Shown: positions 968 through 7,203 of the stretch, one piece after another
Position numbering within the stretch: position 1 is the first letter of the stretch
How the letters are laid out: the number at the start of each line of letters is the position of its first letter
IMG/VR virus record: IMGVR_UViG_2681813227_000011
Direction: 5' to 3' (one strand)
DNA from: a virus
Taxonomy: Duplodnaviria; Heunggongvirae; Uroviricota; Caudoviricetes
DNA length: 22,219 nt
Program-made: the position numbers and the translations under genes
Notes under the pieces: generated by a model
Seen by the model: the letters and a program-made list of their open reading frames with translations, nothing else
What the model was told of the DNA's origin: nothing
Databases searched by the model: none

Positions 968-1705
968 TCATTCACTCTCTTTCAAACCAGTTTTAACTGT
1001 TTGTGGTTTTGGGTAAGGCTGGACTTTGAATAGCTTTGTGTTGAGGCGTTTTCTGGCCCTCTTGTTCAGAAACCGGATGTAACGAAACTGTCGGAACTTA
1101 TGAACACTGGCTCTGTCAATATTAGCCCTCAGATGTTCACCTCGTTGTCCGCCTCGTTTAATGGCATTCCTGCAAATCTCGTGATACCACTCGCCATCAA
1201 GTTCATAGAATATTGATTCATGGCTGCCTACATAATCAAAATTGCTTGCCTGATACACGACACCAAGACAGCCACAACGCTCATCTGCAAACGACTGAAC
1301 CCACTGTACCTGCGGATAAAGCTGCCTGATTAGCTTGAGCGCGTAACTGATTGCCCTTGATTCGGAGTTTCTCGGCATACAGTCATGCAGCCATAGCCGG
1401 TTAAGCTCCATATATTCTCGGTTCTGCGTACCCGTTACGACGCGTGCACCACTGTTTGGGTTAAGGGCGTAACCCCATTGCATTACGCCAACAAGTTCCC
1501 GTCCTGAAAATATGCCCAGATGAAGGTAGGAGTTATTTACGAAACGGTGGCTGTAATGTTTATTGACGATGACCAGTCTGGCCAGCCAGCAACTTATTGT
1601 CTCAACCCGCAACTCACGGGAGCCATAACCAACGATATTGTCGTTATAGCGAATAAGTTCAGGCGTGCTGATGATACGGGATGTGACTTGCTTTCTGTTC
1701 CCCAC
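968..1705 (-). CDS. mom: Mom-like DNA modification protein (anti-restriction adenine modification)
   Basis: ~230-245 aa ORF immediately downstream of and overlapping a Com-like zinc-finger ORF, positioned after the invertase as in phage Mu. Identity rests on synteny; exact start is uncertain. Confidence 0.55.
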
Positions 1706-1859
1706 GACAGGATTTCCTTGTGTATGTGGGGTGCTCTGTGGCGCTCGGAGATGTGATTTGATTGAGGGTTTTACAGCGCGGACATTTTACTTCCAGATAA
1801 CTGAAACTGGCCCGTGCCAGTAGCTTATTGCAGTGTCGGCACCGTATGTTTCGATACAT
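1659..1859 (-). CDS. com: Com-like zinc-finger translational activator of mom (start at internal MYRNIRC)
   Basis: [30 protein letters not shown]: CxxC-16-CxxC zinc finger in a ~66-aa protein resembling Mu Com as I recall it; its 3' end overlaps the mom start. Confidence 0.6.
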
Positions 1860-1904
1860 GGCCGCATAACCTCCTGCTTTGTTGTTGATGCCTTTTTCAT
1901 GCAA

Positions 1905-2082
1905 TCGATCGACAAAAACGATCGATTCGATTTGTTTAATTGATACAACAAATAGATTTAAAAGTCATCAACAATGATTCAGGGCGGTGATTATTTACTT
2001 AAAGAAAACGAAGACTTAGGTGGTGAAAACGATCATAAAATGATCATTTTATTGACTTTTTATCCAGTGAAGGTAGGATCGC
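1905..2082 (-). promoter_or_regulatory. Candidate com-mom promoter/regulatory region with clustered GATC (Dam) sites and a perfect 18-bp palindrome
   Basis: GATC at ~1907, 1920, 2031, 2042 and 2077 (5 in ~175 bp). ATAAAATGATCATTTTAT at ~2035-2052 is a perfect palindrome centred on a GATC. The region is AT-rich and lies upstream of com. Confidence 0.4.
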
Positions 2083-2345
2083 GCGTATATGTAGTATGTT
2101 TCAAATCAACAGGATACTACATAAAAGGGAAACCCAGCATAGCTGGAACTATGCTGGGCCGATTTAGACAAGTTTGCATCAATGCTTTACTTCGGGACTA
2201 CATAAATGGCGACTCAGATAGCGCGAACTATTCTGGGTCAATCTGTAAAAACTTGCATCAATGCTTCACTCTGAGCTCGTGGTGTATCCTATGATATTCC
2301 CCGGTCTCCTGTAAAGCAGAGATGCATCTGTTCAGGCAGGAGAAA

Positions 2346-2552
2346 ATGGATAAACTGACCACCGACCAAAAGTTACAGGCTGCGCGAATTGCAGCTGATA
2401 TCACAATTGCAGCAATGACATCCACCAGTTGTGTCTTTACCTCTTTTCATACAGCCGGTGATTCATCAGCTATGCAATTATGGAACGCGTGCTTTTCTGA
2501 TGTAATTCGGGCAATCAGCGAGTCAACTGACCCTCACGAACCGCAAAAATAG
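2346..2552 (+). CDS. Hypothetical small protein (68 aa from MDKLTTDQ)
   Basis: AGGAG Shine-Dalgarno 4-5 nt upstream of the ATG at ~2346; a hydrophobic stretch (IAADITIAAMTST). Converges on and overlaps the next ORF. Confidence 0.3.
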   Translation: MDKLTTDQKLQAARIAADITIAAMTSTSCVFTSFHTAGDSSAMQLWNACFSDVIRAISESTDPHEPQK

Positions 2553-2715
2553 CGCATCTTGGGGTACACAGGATCTGCATCGCTATCCACATTGCAGTGG
2601 TGAAGTTTCTATCCTGTAATGTATTTTCATCAAGTCCTGAACGTAGCGCATTGATAATTTCTGCGCTTAATATTTCCAGACCTTTGGTATCGGGCTGCTT
2701 TTTGTTCTTCTCCAT
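2515..2715 (-). CDS. Hypothetical small protein (66 aa)
   Basis: GAGG Shine-Dalgarno ~8 nt upstream of the ATG (agaggaaataatcATG). No recognisable family. Confidence 0.4.
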   Translation of the reverse strand: MEKNKKQPDTKGLEILSAEIINALRSGLDENTLQDRNFTTAMWIAMQILCTPRCAIFAVREGQLTR

Positions 2716-2789: not shown

Positions 2790-3035
2790 TTACATCATGG
2801 CACTGTCAGTTCCGGGCTGAACCGGCTCTGGTTGCTCTACGGGCTGAGGCTCATTCTCCGTGCTGTTTTCAGCCGGAGAATGGCCAACCATTCGGGCCAG
2901 CACTTCATCAACATATGCGTCGATTTGTGCCTCAAAATCCTTGCGAACCTGCGCCTTCAGCACGCGGTTCACTTCTTCAGAATAAAGTGCCTGTTTGACA
3001 AGCTCTTCAGTAACCGTGCCTTTAATCTCTGGCAT
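2790..3035 (-). CDS. Hypothetical acidic small protein (81 aa from MPEIKGTV)
   Basis: Strong Shine-Dalgarno (aaaaGGAGaatattcATG) at the internal start; the longer track ORF 2790..3146 is probably overextended. Acidic Pro/Glu-rich C-terminus. Confidence 0.45.
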   Translation of the reverse strand: MPEIKGTVTEELVKQALYSEEVNRVLKAQVRKDFEAQIDAYVDEVLARMVGHSPAENSTENEPQPVEQPEPVQPGTDSAMM

Positions 3036-3252
3036 GAATATTCTCCTTTTGCAGGTATATTGCCCCGTTATCAGAGCGGGTCGGGTCGTTTGGGGATGAC
3101 GGTGCCTGTGCTGTTTTACTGAGTTTTTCAGCTGCCGCATCATCAATTTTACGGCGAATATAATTTCTGATGACCTTATAACCGCCGCTCACCAGATATA
3201 ACGCACTGACCACAGCGCAGAAATAAAGCAGCATTGTATGAACGAATGTCAT
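3022..3252 (-). CDS. Hypothetical small membrane protein (76 aa, one predicted N-terminal transmembrane helix)
   Basis: LLYFCAVVSALYLVSGGY hydrophobic helix followed by a basic stretch; its stop overlaps the start of the next ORF by ~14 nt, suggesting a two-gene operon. Confidence 0.45.
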   Translation of the reverse strand: MTFVHTMLLYFCAVVSALYLVSGGYKVIRNYIRRKIDDAAAEKLSKTAQAPSSPNDPTRSDNGAIYLQKENIHARD

Positions 3253-3366
3253 ATAACCTTACCTTTGATATTGACTACATAATTCGTTATCGGGTAAAAA
3301 CATCGAAGCGACTGATAACCACTCCTTCGGGAGTATTTTTATTTTCCTTTATGGGTTAGGTAGCTC

Positions 3367-3400
3367 CCGCCAGCCATATCATGACCGGCGGGATTTTTTT
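3367..3400 (+). terminator. Hairpin plus T-run (terminator-like in plus-strand polarity)
   Basis: CCCGCC-N15-GGCGGG followed by TTTTTTT, at the 3' end of the esterase gene. Polarity is opposite to the surrounding genes, so its role is unclear. Confidence 0.3.
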
Positions 3401-5438
3401 ATTCTGTTACCGCTTTTTTCACTTCCACCACAATGCTGTCAATCAGCACCGGGTAAGTTGCATTTTTGGTGATATCCGTTACGCGGAGTTTGTCCACCGG
3501 GAAAGTTCCTACTGGTGACTGCGTCAGGGTAAACGCGGCACCATCCTGACCATCAATAACCGGAATAACCTGAAGGCTGTTATTTCCTGCAAAACGGAAG
3601 GCCAGCGTATGCCATTCATTATCAAATGCACCAAAGGTTCCCAGTTTCTGGTTATTTGTTGCCACTTTTGCATTGTGGTACATCACATTCAGGTCTTTTG
3701 CGTCTGTCTGGATGTAGAACGATGCCAGCAGATTATTCCCTGCATCCCCTGTCAGGGTGACACCCTGCGGCAGAGAGGAAACCGGCCAGTAAAGCGCCAT
3801 GACATACTGGTTTGCCACCAGGTCGCCCGGTACTTTAAAACGACAACTGATTAAACCACCATTTTTCAGCAGTTCAGCACCAGTACCGGCATCATGATCC
3901 AGATACCAGGATGATTTACCTGTTTCCTTGGTCAGTTTCATTGCCTTACCACCTGTGCCTCCTGCATCACTGATAATTTCAGCTTTACCGCCAGCCGGCT
4001 CCCAGCCCTGGGCTTTCAGATTTCCTTCTGACTCACTGACACGGTAAGACAGCAGTGTTGTGGTTACTGCTTCAGTTTCTGAAGGTGACGGCACTGGTGC
4101 TTCAGTTTCAGAAGATGGAACATCGGCTTTTACTGTGGTTCGCCCCGCATGAGTCAGAACTGCCGTGGCCAGACGGTCGGAAATAATCCCACGACGTGCC
4201 CATGAACTGAAATGGCTGGCCCGGTCCGCAGATGTCCAGGTGGCGGCACTGTTACGCCACGTTGAGCCGTAATAACCAATGGATTCAATATCCGGGTCTT
4301 CTGCCGGATTGTTGGTGGGTACATTCGCGCCATTTTCATCTGTCATTAATGGGACGAAATGAATGTTTTTATCTGTTTTATTTTTGTAGCCGTCATAGAT
4401 TGCCTGGTATGCCTGTTCGTTTTTCTGTTTCCAGAAATACGTGGTATCACCACAAATCCACGGAACGCCAGCAGCACTGCCACCGGTACACTGTTCCGCC
4501 TGTTCAGCCAGGTCTGCGCGGAATTTTTCCACCATCGCCAGAAACAGCGCAGAATGCTCCGTCGGCTTCGCATCAATATCAAACTCGCCCTGCATCCACA
4601 CCACAGCAAGCAGGCGGTTTTTCGGGTTCTTCGCCAGTGCCGCTTTTGTCCGGCTGATTAAGTCCTTATACAGCGGCTTATCCACACCCCAGCGGGCTGA
4701 GTCCTCTGAAGCACCCGTGCTGTCACTGTACGTGCCGTCAGCACCCGCCGTGAATGCAGAACCACCACGGCAGCAGGGAACCAGCAGAATCCCCGCATCT
4801 GCCGGAATAAACGGCAGCAGTTTTTTGGCAATGTGAAGCCCCTGACCCACGGTGCCATATTGCCCTTTAGCCACATCCGCTTTCGGGTGATTTTTTCCAC
4901 TCATATCCTGCACATCATGCAGACAGTGGTCGGCCAGAATGATGTCGTTATACTGACAGGCTTTACCTCCCGGCGTGACTGTACTGCGACGGGCTAACTG
5001 CATAATACGCGGTTCGGGGCGGTCATATGTCTCCGGCAGTGGCAGACCTTCACCGTAAGCCATACCGTTTGACTGACCAGCAAGAACCACCACGTAATAC
5101 CAGGAAGGGGAGCTGGAAGCAGTTTCATTTCCTGACGGACGGGTATGTGTTTCAGCATTATCCCAGTCTGACGGTTCAGCAGTACCGGCAACATCAGCAC
5201 TTAACGGAATGACCGCACCAATACCCGCTCCGGTAATTTCCACACTCGGATCACCGGATACTGGCCTTACCCACAGGCAATCCCGGGTATTAAAACTGAT
5301 GAGACAGTCAGCAAATGTCATTCCTCCTTTTGTTTCGGCCGGAGGAAAGGGAGCCTCAAGAAATGCCGCTGTACCACCGGAAACTTTAACAGTAAAGTTT
5401 CCGGGCATTGATGATAGTTGAACCCATTTGGACGTCAT
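3399..5438 (-). CDS. Prophage-type sialate O-acetylesterase (NanS-p-like): SASA/SGNH esterase domain plus C-terminal lectin-like domain
   Basis: VVVLAGQSNGMAYGEG matches the GQSN(M) catalytic-serine block of the sialate O-acetylesterase family. A Thr/Glu/Pro/Ser-rich linker and a ~200-aa C-terminal domain follow. 679 aa. Confidence 0.7.
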   Translation of the reverse strand: MTSKWVQLSSMPGNFTVKVSGGTAAFLEAPFPPAETKGGMTFADCLISFNTRDCLWVRPVSGDPSVEITGAGIGAVIPLSADVAGTAEPSDWDNAETHTRPSGNETASSSPSWYYVVVLAGQSNGMAYGEGLPLPETYDRPEPRIMQLARRSTVTPGGKACQYNDIILADHCLHDVQDMSGKNHPKADVAKGQYGTVGQGLHIAKKLLPFIPADAGILLVPCCRGGSAFTAGADGTYSDSTGASEDSARWGVDKPLYKDLISRTKAALAKNPKNRLLAVVWMQGEFDIDAKPTEHSALFLAMVEKFRADLAEQAEQCTGGSAAGVPWICGDTTYFWKQKNEQAYQAIYDGYKNKTDKNIHFVPLMTDENGANVPTNNPAEDPDIESIGYYGSTWRNSAATWTSADRASHFSSWARRGIISDRLATAVLTHAGRTTVKADVPSSETEAPVPSPSETEAVTTTLLSYRVSESEGNLKAQGWEPAGGKAEIISDAGGTGGKAMKLTKETGKSSWYLDHDAGTGAELLKNGGLISCRFKVPGDLVANQYVMALYWPVSSLPQGVTLTGDAGNNLLASFYIQTDAKDLNVMYHNAKVATNNQKLGTFGAFDNEWHTLAFRFAGNNSLQVIPVIDGQDGAAFTLTQSPVGTFPVDKLRVTDITKNATYPVLIDSIVVEVKKAVTE

Positions 5439-5537
5439 AATAATCAGCCTGTTCCTGAATAAACTGAATTATCATATCCACAGACCGATAAACGCCATTT
5501 TGCGTTAATTCAGTAAAGGCCCAACAAAGAGAGCGTC

Positions 5538-6098
5538 TTATTTTTCCGAAACGCTCGCAGGATAATAACGATAAAGGGTTGAAAGACCGATATCAAAAAT
5601 AAGTGCCACCTGTCTTCGACTGACACCCCCGGCCAGTAAACGCCCGACCTGCTCGTATTGTTCCTGCGTGAGACGGCGGGGTCTGCCGCCGGTTCGTCCC
5701 CTTTCACGGGCAGCTGCAAGACCAGCCCGTGTCCGTTCGACAATTAATTCACGCTCCATTTCTGCCAGCGCACCCATTATGTGAAAAAAGAAGCGCCCCA
5801 TGGGGGTTGACGTATCAATGTTGTCAGTAAGACTACGAAAATTTATCCCCTGTTGCTGTAATTCATCTGTCAGCGCAACAAGGTGGCGCATACTGCGCCC
5901 CAGCCTGTCCAGTTTCCAGACCATCAGCGTGTCACCGGGTTTTAGTTTCTTCAGTGCCCGCTTCAGTCCCGGCCGCTGTGTCGTTTTACCACTCATTTTG
6001 TCTTCAAAAATCTGCTCACATCCTGCACATTCCAGCGCATTTCTTTGTAAACCGGTGTTCTGGTCATTTGTTGATACGCGTATATAGCCAATCAGCAT
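5538..6098 (-). CDS. gin: Serine DNA invertase, Gin/Pin/Cin/Hin family
   Basis: N-terminus MLIGYIRVSTNDQNTGLQ (catalytic Ser in the resolvase/invertase motif), C-terminal helix-turn-helix, 186 aa, adjacent to an invertible tail-fibre segment. Confidence 0.9.
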   Translation of the reverse strand: MLIGYIRVSTNDQNTGLQRNALECAGCEQIFEDKMSGKTTQRPGLKRALKKLKPGDTLMVWKLDRLGRSMRHLVALTDELQQQGINFRSLTDNIDTSTPMGRFFFHIMGALAEMERELIVERTRAGLAAARERGRTGGRPRRLTQEQYEQVGRLLAGGVSRRQVALIFDIGLSTLYRYYPASVSEK

Positions 6099-6152
6099 GT
6101 ATTTACCTTCCTTAAAAAGAGGTGGAAAAGCCTTTTAAAGCAGATATACGGC

Positions 6153-6178
6153 ATCCCTGAAACCTCGGTTTACGGGAT
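6153..6178. other. gix-like recombination site (left, invertase-proximal)
   Basis: ATCCCTGAAACCTCGGTTTACGGGAT: inverted counterpart of the site at 7579..7604 with central AAACC-TC-GGTTT. It is ~55 bp upstream of the invertase start and directly follows an in-frame stop. Confidence 0.65.
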
Positions 6179-6532
6179 ACGGTAAACAGGGCCGCGAATG
6201 CCCTGCCATCAAACGGTACGGCTGTTGCAGCAAGCAGGCTGGCAAATGCCCGCAGAATCAATGGTGTCGCCTTTGACGGCACGCAGGATATAAACATTAC
6301 GTCAGGAATGCCGGAATCAACGGCCAATCAGCGTTATGTTACAGGGGTAAGACTGGGAGCGCAGGCATTAAGCGGCGGACTGGAATATAATTACTCCCTG
6401 TCATCAGGAAATGTGATTACCGGTTTTAAGACTGACGGAGACTGGGAAATGCGTGGTGGTGATGACCGTGTTTATTACAGACAGATACAATATTGTATTA
6501 ATGGGCATTGGGTATCCGCTGCAAGTATTTAA
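6161..6532 (+). CDS. Silent alternative tail-fibre C-terminal cassette (Sv'-like; no start of its own in this orientation)
   Basis: Plus-strand frame translates to NLGLRDTVNRAANALPS...RYVTGVRLGAQ...YYRQIQYCINGHWVSAASI, parallel to the C-terminal 127 aa of the expressed fibre (NLGLRETVNKAADALPS...RYVQNVQLGAQ...YYRPVQIYINNAWRTVSSV). A TGA sits immediately upstream. Confidence 0.7.
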   Translation, partial: NLGLRDTVNRAANALPSNGTAVAASRLANARRINGVAFDGTQDINITSGMPESTANQRYVTGVRLGAQALSGGLEYNYSLSSGNVITGFKTDGDWEMRGGDDRVYYRQIQYCINGHWVSAASI

Positions 6533-6653
6533 TTAACGGGGGCATAGCACACAGCAGCCAGCATCTGAAATATGCGTTATTTCAGACAAGCATTGCCTGT
6601 ATATGGCGATAGTATTATTCCTGTTTTTATCATTGATTTACATGGTGATGTTT

Positions 6654-7175
6654 ATGCAACTGATTAATGTCAAACGATATTACCCGAAAGACAAACCCTA
6701 TGGTGAGGATGTTCAGTATTTCCAGAGTGAGGACGGAAGGGATTTTTATGAATCTATCCCGCTTTTTACAAAGAAATACAAACTCTGTATTTCGCCTGTA
6801 ACGGGTATTATCTGCTCTGTTGCTGAAGATGTCTCTGCTTTATATCCGGCAGGTTTTACTGTTGTTGAAGTGGACGAACTGCCGGAAGGTGTGAATATTG
6901 ACGGTAACTGGCAGTTTTCTGATGGCCTGATATCAAAGGTGCCGGTAAACTGGAAGACGGTTGCTGAAAAGCGTCGCTCATCGCTGCTCCAGGAAGCCAA
7001 CGAAACCGTGGATGACTGGAAAACAGAATTAAAACTGGACATGATTAGCGATGAAAATAAATTACAGCTGACGCGCTGGATGGCGTATATCCGACAGCTT
7101 AAAGAAATGCACTTTAATGATATTGCCAGTGAGGGGCATTACCAGGCGATTCCCTGGCCGGAAAAACCGGAATAA
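6654..7175 (+). CDS. Tail-fibre assembly protein (Mu U / lambda Tfa family), co-oriented with the silent cassette
   Basis: ~174 aa from MQLINVKRYYP. The C-terminus LTRWMAYIRQLKEMHF...AIPWPEKPE follows the Tfa pattern as I recall lambda Tfa. The track start at 6603 adds an implausible hydrophobic leader. Confidence 0.7.
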   Translation: MQLINVKRYYPKDKPYGEDVQYFQSEDGRDFYESIPLFTKKYKLCISPVTGIICSVAEDVSALYPAGFTVVEVDELPEGVNIDGNWQFSDGLISKVPVNWKTVAEKRRSSLLQEANETVDDWKTELKLDMISDENKLQLTRWMAYIRQLKEMHFNDIASEGHYQAIPWPEKPE

Positions 7176-7180
7176 TTCAG

Positions 7181-7203
7181 AGGGTGCATTCAGCACCCTT
7201 TTC
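7181..7203 (+). terminator. Hairpin plus T-run between the convergent Tfa and tail-fibre genes
   Basis: AGGGTGC-attca-GCACCCT-TTTT in the 34-bp gap between the Tfa stop (7175) and the tail-fibre stop (7210). Confidence 0.5.

Follow-up and report, generated by a model that had tools for sequence, protein, structure and literature searches.

A gene in a 22,219-nucleotide stretch of Caudoviricetes DNA (IMG/VR record IMGVR_UViG_2681813227_000011; the whole stretch is called the window here) very probably encodes a NanS-p sialate 9-O-acetylesterase of the Sp18 family of Mu-like prophages, carried as part of an old, fixed gene module and fitted with a Mu-specific N-terminus. An initial annotation, made from the letters alone, had described a 679-aa protein with a GQSN block and a lectin-like C-terminal domain, resembling NanS-p and located in a Mu-type phage between the invertase and com-mom. 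These statements are borne out: the open reading frame (ORF) runs uninterrupted from ATG to stop over 679 codons, GQSN stands at aa 121-124, and the gene lies between gin (5538-6098) and com-mom (968-1904). The gene and its domains are as follows.

3399 to 5438, minus strand: Mu-type nanS-p gene, 679 aa, orthologue of ECs4993 in prophage Sp18 of the Sakai strain (from the ORF and from Pfam and PDB matches)
5199 to 5438, minus strand: N-terminal domain, aa 1-80, a predicted cupin-like all-beta barrel instead of the lambdoid DUF1737
5103 to 5198, minus strand: linker 1, aa 81-112, with SSSP at aa 108-111 (low predicted local distance difference test (pLDDT) score, poor conservation)
4134 to 5102, minus strand: SASA/NanS catalytic domain, aa 113-435 (from Pfam, the 3PT5 match and the sequence blocks)
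3399 to 4064, minus strand: C-terminal lectin-like jelly-roll domain (DUF6645), aa 459-679 (from the 6YP6 match and Pfam DUF6645)

Most database entries of the esterase begin at Met11 (669 aa; window position 5408 instead of 5438). Residues 1-10 are conserved in divergent alleles, with W5 invariant, and the 679-aa start is therefore favoured. In Pfam, aa 116-312 match SASA (PF03629; E 5.5e-12, with a score exceeding the gathering cut-off) and aa 524-642 match DUF6645 (PF20350; E 4e-70). Among PDB sequences, E. coli NanS/YjhS (3PT5) aligns with aa 104-428 (E 1.4e-118) and the NanS-p C-terminal domain (6YP6) matches aa 459-674 (E 2.9e-112). All four NanS blocks are present, namely GQSNG (Block I, aa 121-125, including Ser123), RGGSAF (Block II, aa 224-229), MQGEFD (Block III, aa 282-287) and SHFS (Block V, aa 408-411, including His409), the last having the catalytic His and no Asp. 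The same blocks, identical or almost identical in sequence, are given for 3PT5 (PMC10792757), and they also agree with the GQSN/(H)QGE arrangement for the oxyanion that is described as a trait of the SASA family (PMC9487903). Chromosomal NanS differs in being a single-domain protein of about 326 aa encoded in the nanCMS operon, whereas the window protein is phage-borne and has extra N- and C-terminal domains. Over aa 102-673 the esterase is 78% identical to NanS-p gp44 (aa 60-638) of the Shiga toxin (Stx) 2 phage 1717, and its first 101 aa have no counterpart there. By every sequence criterion except the N-terminal domain, then, the protein belongs to the NanS-p family, and it is best named a Mu-type variant of NanS-p residing in a different phage type. 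The lambdoid NanS-p architecture that had been proposed for it holds for the SASA and lectin-like domains and fails at the N-terminus, where DUF1737 is replaced.

With respect to catalysis, Ser123 would serve as the nucleophile, Gln122 and the MQGE block would form a SASA-type oxyanion hole, and His409 would act as the base, in the SASA/CE6 SGNH-type manner; the lectin-like DUF6645 behind the catalytic domain would bind carbohydrate. According to a review (PMC8065619), lambdoid NanS-p proteins have esterase activity towards Neu5,9Ac2 and the O-glycans of mucin. A different acetylated glycan (O-antigen, capsule, colanic acid or acetyl-xylan) could in principle be the substrate of what would then be a receptor-modifying SGNH esterase, given that some SASA members are acetyl-xylan esterases (PMC9487903), that de-O-acetylation of lipopolysaccharide by NanS-p has been raised as a possibility (PMC8065619), and that PHROG 'tail protein' and 'tail fiber' families match aa 210-349. 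These PHROG matches are weak (E 4e-5 and 0.03) and span the SGNH region. We regard such a substrate as very improbable: the protein aligns end to end (E 1e-118) with NanS 3PT5, reported to be most active on 9-O-acetyl Neu5Ac, its catalytic domain is 81% identical to that of lambdoid NanS-p, and it has no tailspike-like domain. Neither Pfam nor PHROG revealed a recognisable tail-fibre or tailspike anchor or a beta-helix, and the gene lies outside the tail operon, after gin.

The N-terminal domain is the feature that sets the window protein apart. Pfam detected no DUF1737 (PF08410) in the esterase, and the N-terminal domain gave zero Pfam matches even at E <= 10; aa 1-101 showed no similarity by BLASTP to aa 1-59 of phage 1717 gp44. 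Outside its own gene family, the domain found nothing significant in a word-indexed search or by tblastn against 50,697 phage records, and an exhaustive phmmer search of 1.84 billion representatives returned the same gene family only. One candidate, a repetitive Ala/Gly-rich protein of 1445 aa (P0005), matched the domain and was put aside, as the match looks compositional; a match to phrog_4772, a family without annotation, was weak (E 0.006). A single-sequence AlphaFold2 prediction for aa 1-115 was discarded (pLDDT 44) and a 12-row alignment was used for the model. In this model the N-terminal ~80 aa form a cupin-like beta-barrel, which takes the place of the capsid-binding DUF1737. The latter comprises about 57 aa, with one helix and three strands as described in a 2026 preprint on phage phi24B (10.64898/2026.04.10.717836), and the fold predicted here is different.

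Even though the searches yielded no family, comparison of alleles indicates that the N-terminal segment is a genuine domain, since it exists in divergent versions and is under purifying selection. It is 59% identical between the alleles designated type A and a second class, type B. In a Salmonella Mu-like prophage a version 27-29% identical is joined to the same GQSN esterase downstream of gin; this homologue is readable for 153 aa only, up to the end of the contig. Between types A and B, pN is 0.23 and pS 0.77, and the ratio of non-synonymous to synonymous substitution rates (dN/dS) is 0.09 for A versus C, a third class, and 0.17 for B versus B, with similar values for the catalytic domain. 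Non-synonymous change is thus far below synonymous change, as expected under purifying selection. In linker 1, dN/dS is near or above 1 in distant comparisons. The N-terminal domain was detected in Mu-like prophages alone.

The SSSP motif of linker 1 (nt 5106-5117) adjoins the start of the catalytic domain. SSP-containing linker motifs have been proposed as self-processing sites in the phi24B preprint (10.64898/2026.04.10.717836). The motif is not kept in type-B alleles, which have SSSEP, and the second linker (aa 440-458) has PSPS instead.

The remainder of the protein has a different history from its N-terminus. About 300 phage records, nearly all Stx-converting, match window positions 3410-5093 at 78-81% nucleotide identity, whereas the first about 345 bases of the gene are matched by two records only, both described as an 'inserted Mu-like phage' within Stx phages. 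Database relatives accordingly fall into two classes, one of 642-651 aa with DUF1737, SASA and DUF6645 (lambdoid) and one of 669-691 aa with SASA and DUF6645 and without PF08410 (Mu-type). Lambdoid NanS-p shares with the window protein the SASA domain (81%), the interdomain linkers, DUF6645 (79-95%) and the lack of a signal peptide, and one lambdoid allele with DUF1737 (P0075) is 90% identical over 91% of the query. The catalytic domain in the window has higher identity to lambdoid alleles (81%) than to those of Mu type B (70%). Types A and B are borne by phages whose flanks are 93-100% identical (mom 97%; gp47 100% in locus L004 and 93% in locus L003; major head protein 98%), as against 59% in the esterase's N-terminal, 70% in its catalytic and 73% in its C-terminal domain and about 72% in the DUF1378 and DUF826 products. 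In one type-A allele (locus L001) the C-terminal domain is 94.6% identical to Stx2_14040, compared with 83% for the window allele, and type-C alleles combine a type-A N-terminus (97%) with a catalytic domain at 67-68% and a C-terminal domain at 38-45% identity that Pfam still assigns to DUF6645.

Genes for DUF1378 and DUF826 also follow nanS-p in lambdoid phages (Stx2_14040, phage 1720a-02, Stx2-1717). Their products are 53% and 36-47% identical, respectively, to those in the window, compared with 78-90% for the esterase. The far greater divergence of the two small proteins suggests an old module in which the esterase body has been renewed. The simplest reading of these sequences is that the three genes have long resided in both phage types, with repeated exchange of the esterase body among copies in one host. 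The N-terminus is never passed from one phage type to the other; linkage to a phage-specific flank alone would account for a Mu-only N-terminus, without any functional argument.

The com-mom end of the element was found in 233 of 5426 complete E. coli genomes (about 4%), at many unrelated sites. Of the N-termini, type A together with the gin junction is present in 205 genomes and type B in 28; these sum to 233, matching the com-mom count and thus fitting the presence of the esterase in every Sp18-type prophage, with the proviso that the two sets were counted separately and may overlap. The hosts include O157, O26, O111 and O103 strains from cattle and humans, as well as isolates from mouse, wildebeest, pig, marmot, seawater and wastewater, and the gene holds the same position in prophages of mouse, human-commensal and wastewater E. 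coli not annotated as E. coli that produce Shiga toxin (STEC). All 34 IMG/VR contigs recovered through the N-terminal domain have the order gp47-gp48-S-U-gin-nanS-p-DUF1378-DUF826-com-mom, and the esterase ORF is full-length in 29 of 32 complete ORFs from these loci. In SfMu, gin and com are 82 bp apart and there is no module; among the Mu-like prophages of Edwardsiella, Pantoea and further genera, those with mom have com/mom straight after gin or the fibre-assembly gene. Whereas gin adjoins com in Mu-type phages, about 3.7 kb of extra genes separate them in the window. The module of nanS-p, DUF1378 and DUF826 is therefore an insertion on the basic Mu plan, old and fixed in the Sp18 lineage.

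The initial annotation had pictured the gene as laterally acquired cargo. Its accessory nature holds on a wider scale only, in comparison with Mu, SfMu and Mu-like prophages of other genera, where the gin-com junction is empty; the close relatives, including Sakai Sp18 and the 34 IMG/VR contigs, carry the gene at this very position, the observation that had been named as evidence against cargo. A recent moron (fitness cargo) taken from an Stx-type lambdoid phage and expressed in the lysogen would agree with an enzyme body 78-90% identical to lambdoid alleles, with the absence of the module from Mu, SfMu and the other genera, with a GC content below that of the structural core (0.51 versus 0.54-0.59), and with constitutive read-through, which is conceivable in the absence of a terminator after gin. 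We consider it improbable. The module is apparently in every Sp18-type prophage examined, including those in hosts not annotated as STEC, and a Salmonella Mu-like prophage has a diverged form of it; the distance of the N-terminal domain and of both downstream genes from the lambdoid versions is much too great for a recent capture, and no sigma-70 promoter was found beyond chance. The low GC content is shared with gin, S, U, com and mom, so that neither GC nor GC at third codon positions, the foreign-origin signs compared here, sets the gene apart from its Mu-type neighbours. A recent date of acquisition is thus largely refuted, and the view of an old, fixed module is retained.

Individual prophages vary around the module. 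In locus L003 (E. coli M1, mouse; 13446-13750), gin and the alternative fibre segment are lost and a full-length type-B esterase and its upstream motif are kept. Locus L005 (E. coli SW070917; 7963-9169) has a DNA cytosine methyltransferase gene in place of mom, straight after com, with the esterase module unchanged. In locus L067 (strain 23CRST047, type B), IS66-family elements interrupt the DNA-circularisation gene and the early region (3448-5864 and 27979-30001); this prophage is probably defective, yet its esterase is intact.

Two candidate expression signals stand upstream of the start codon.

5471 to 5512, minus strand: candidate late (Mu C-type) promoter, with TGAATTAACGCAAA at 5512-5499, a 22-nt spacer and a -10-like TATGAT at 5476-5471
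5448 to 5456, minus strand: Shine-Dalgarno-like AGGAACAGG, ending 9 nt before the ATG and kept in types A, B and C

The core of the candidate promoter, TGAWWTNNCGCAAA, occurs in three exact copies in a 49-kb Sakai stretch (38 kb Sp18), all of them intergenic and on the coding strand. They precede lys, the protease/scaffold gene I and ECs4993, and each is followed after 22-23 nt by TAnnnT. Exact matches in random shuffles numbered 0.02, a figure that overstates the significance because the pattern was defined after the three sites had been viewed. Type-B alleles have TGAATTTCCGCAAA at the same spacing, closer still to the lys/I version. A related element, A/T-rich and then TCCCGCACCT(G/C)CC, is found upstream of lys and I in phage Mu, the regions in which the C-dependent late promoters of Mu lie. 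A sigma-70 consensus scan gave 7 sites against 8.8 expected, which is no excess over chance, and no terminator was predicted in the 99-bp gap between gin and nanS-p. From the upstream sequence we infer that a late, activator-dependent promoter drives the esterase gene. Late control is known for lambdoid NanS-p, where it acts through Q antitermination; a C-type activator would serve here, the C homologue of Sp18 being ECs4961. A one-mismatch copy of the core, TGAAATAACGCATA, at 6571-6584 on the minus strand, falls within the invertible segment, with a 61-71-aa ORF and gin downstream of it, and may be there by chance.

A motif common to the lys and head promoters, together with the lack of a signal peptide or hydrophobic leader in the esterase (maximum Kyte-Doolittle 0.85 over 15 aa), suggests late-lytic expression and release by lysis. 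In the mechanism we propose, nanS-p would be transcribed in lytic growth from its own late-activator (Mu C-type) promoter, and the esterase, having no signal peptide, would leave the cell on phage lysis. Outside the cell it would strip 9-O-acetyl groups from mucin sialic acids, and the de-acetylated sialic acids would then be usable by surviving lysogens by way of sialidases and the Nan pathway.

Several observations weigh against this account. The promoter motif was recognised only after the sequences had been viewed, conservation ahead of nanS is confined to the first half of the element, the motif is absent before com and the tail genes, and a type-B prophage has no exact copy of it before its protease gene. 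The lysogen might also transcribe nanS by read-through from gin, the gap between the two genes having no terminator. Sp18 itself, by description an apparently intact Mu-like phage, was reportedly not induced by mitomycin C (PMC2669165). As for the substrate, we infer it from 81% identity to lambdoid catalytic domains, and catalytic identity to chromosomal NanS is about 66% (by eye, from the 3PT5 alignment).

The role of the N-terminal barrel is a separate matter: it may anchor the enzyme to the virion, bind glycans as a second module of that kind or do something else. By cryo-electron microscopy and proteomics, the phi24B preprint reports that gp84 (NanS-p) decorates the capsid via DUF1737 (10.64898/2026.04.10.717836), and the domain swapped here is hence the one reported to attach the enzyme to the lambdoid particle. 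The barrel might likewise dock the esterase on the head, sheath or fibre of the Sp18-type particle, making it a virion component that benefits the phage more than it nourishes the lysogen, either through retention of the particle in mucus or through removal of O-acetyl groups from surface glycans as the receptor is approached. We see this as a possibility, if an unlikely one. It fits the binding of phi24B gp84 to the capsid, the exchange of exactly DUF1737 for a Mu-only domain alongside exchange of the enzyme body, a pattern found in modular fibre and spike proteins, as well as the purifying selection on the N-terminal domain and the promoter motif shared with the lysis and head operons. However, the A and B N-termini differ by 40%, whereas identity in the same prophages reaches 98% for the major head protein and 99-100% for the baseplate proteins, so that there is no covariation with those candidate partners. 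Linkage to the phage flank would by itself keep the N-terminus phage-specific, the gene lies after gin and outside the structural operons, and a virion proteome of an Sp18-type phage was not found. For want of covariation with head or baseplate proteins, the evidence allows, and does not strongly favour, a barrel that may mount the enzyme on the Mu-like particle.

The surroundings of the gene in the window identify the element that carries it.

5538 to 6098, minus strand: gin-type DNA invertase gene (Pfam Resolvase and HTH_7), directly upstream of nanS-p across the 99-bp gap
3022 to 3252, minus strand: gene for a small membrane protein with DUF1378, second of the module (Pfam E 4.9e-38)
2790 to 3035, minus strand: DUF826 gene, 81 aa, third of the module (Pfam E 6e-15; coordinates from the Prokaryotic Genome Annotation Pipeline, PGAP)
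2757 to 2784, no strand: G+C-rich hairpin with an 11-bp stem, a terminator-like end of the module 6 nt past the DUF826 stop
968 to 1904, minus strand: com-mom operon (Pfam Zn_ribbon_Com and Mom; com at 1659-1859/1904, mom at 968-1705)
840 to 922, no strand: right end of the Mu-like prophage, with three TTTGATACC/T repeats at 857-865, 879-887 and 914-922

The baseplate genes, the invertible S/U segment with gin, the com-mom right end and the collinearity with Sp18 all assign the element to the Sp18-type Mu-like prophages, and the window is another copy of such a prophage. Its esterase is 99.4% identical to ECs4993 of O157:H7 Sakai, a gene of 2040 bp annotated only as 'hypothetical protein', and its neighbours correspond to ECs4992 (gin) through ECs4998 (mom), with ECs4994-4996 followed by com and mom. 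As in Mu and SfMu, the right end (S-U-gin-com-mom) comprises an invertible fibre segment, gin, com, mom, a GATC cluster and repeated end sequences resembling transposase sites. The two prophages occupy different sites, Sp18 being inserted in sorM and the window prophage in a lambdoid side-tail-fibre gene near espJ/tccP. Homology with other insertions begins at 839/840, the annotated end in LC727881 being used for comparison, and the flanks vary between genomes, as expected for a transposable phage with repeats at its right end; the left end and the target duplication lie outside the window. Positions 1-839 belong to the fibre gene split by the element, with a collagen-repeat region and Phage_fiber_C; in the near-identical genome NZ_AP042673 the split gene is near espJ and a truncated tccP. 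One phage thus sits within another; the same holds for LC727881 and LC727895, two Stx phages that contain an 'inserted Mu-like phage'.

Downstream, the esterase gene does not adjoin com: DUF1378, DUF826, a 66-aa ORF and a frameshifted ORF on the opposite strand stand in between. The DUF1378 gene is frameshifted near its 3' end, giving 76 aa and an overlap with DUF826, as compared with 60 aa in Sakai ECs4994; its first 58 residues are intact, and PGAP calls it a pseudogene in an identical genome. The opposite-strand ORF (1974-2552, plus strand) is a homologue of Sakai ECs4996 (154 aa, Cys-rich C-terminus, phrog_26524, function unassigned) and, like DUF1378, is frameshifted in the window and not in Sakai Sp18. 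The 66-aa ORF (2515-2715, minus strand) has no family match, and both of these ORFs occur in some Sp18-type prophages only. Between the esterase stop and DUF1378, at about 3360-3395, is a further G+C-rich hairpin, CCCGCCAGCC...GGCGGG, whose T-run is solely on the plus strand, so that it would end transcription in the opposite direction and not the esterase transcript. At 1905-1935, directly upstream of com, a GATC cluster with the near-palindrome GAATCGATCGTTTTTGTCGATCGATT recalls the Dam/OxyR-controlled mom region of Mu. On the other side of the esterase gene, past gin, the invertible tail-fibre segment (6100-8175) contains S at 7210-8175 on the minus strand and, on the plus strand, the assembly gene (6603-7175) and an alternative fibre C-terminus (6308-6532). 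Both orientations of this segment are seen among related prophages, with fibre identities of 45% to 100%. Further upstream lie baseplate genes of the Mu gp47/gp48 type (Pfam Phage_Mu_Gp48).

The contrast with the lambdoid setting extends beyond the N-terminus, where DUF1737 stands in one and an apparently unrelated all-beta domain of ~80 aa, cupin-like in the model, in the other. Lambdoid nanS-p lies between stx and the lysis cassette, whereas the window gene lies between gin and com; its module ends at a hairpin, whereas the lambdoid one runs into holin S; and its phage is a Mu-like transposable myovirus. The esterase sequence is not new: the Sakai genome has included it since 2001, and its name at NCBI is sialate O-acetylesterase or DUF6645 protein. 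No paper in the literature searched connects an E. coli Mu-like prophage with nanS-p or with an O-acetylesterase, mentions ECs4993 by name or discusses the domain replacement, and the single match to 'Mu-like' and 'O-acetylesterase' was an Acinetobacter genome paper.

Few prophage genes of enterohaemorrhagic E. coli have a metabolic role that has been demonstrated; NanS-p is one of them, and its enzyme body is carried as well by a quite different, transposable family of phages common in STEC from cattle and humans. In the Mu-type copy this body is joined to another N-terminal domain, itself under selection, and the gene probably has a late promoter to itself; surveys or quantitative PCR assays aimed at the DUF1737-SASA junction will miss this copy. 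The joint occurrence of the esterase gene with those for DUF1378 and DUF826 in different phage types is a hint that the products of the two small genes act in concert with the enzyme. The replacement also provides a natural domain swap with which to test whether the N-terminus acts in anchoring, in glycan binding or in neither, the possible role of the barrel as a mount on the Mu-like particle being the most interesting point. In a broader and rather doubtful reading, NanS-p proteins would be modular, virion-displayed esterases with a docking domain specific to each phage type at the N-terminus: DUF1737 would fit the T=9 capsid found in lambdoid podoviruses, phi24B among them, and the cupin-like domain would act on a Mu-like contractile-tailed particle as a module, not described before, for docking or for additional glycan binding. 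If docking modules of this kind are real, two unrelated phage morphotypes of gut E. coli would each have wired the enzyme into their late regulon and their particle, and the esterase would have a phage-level function in mucus, beyond the release of nutrients for the lysogen.

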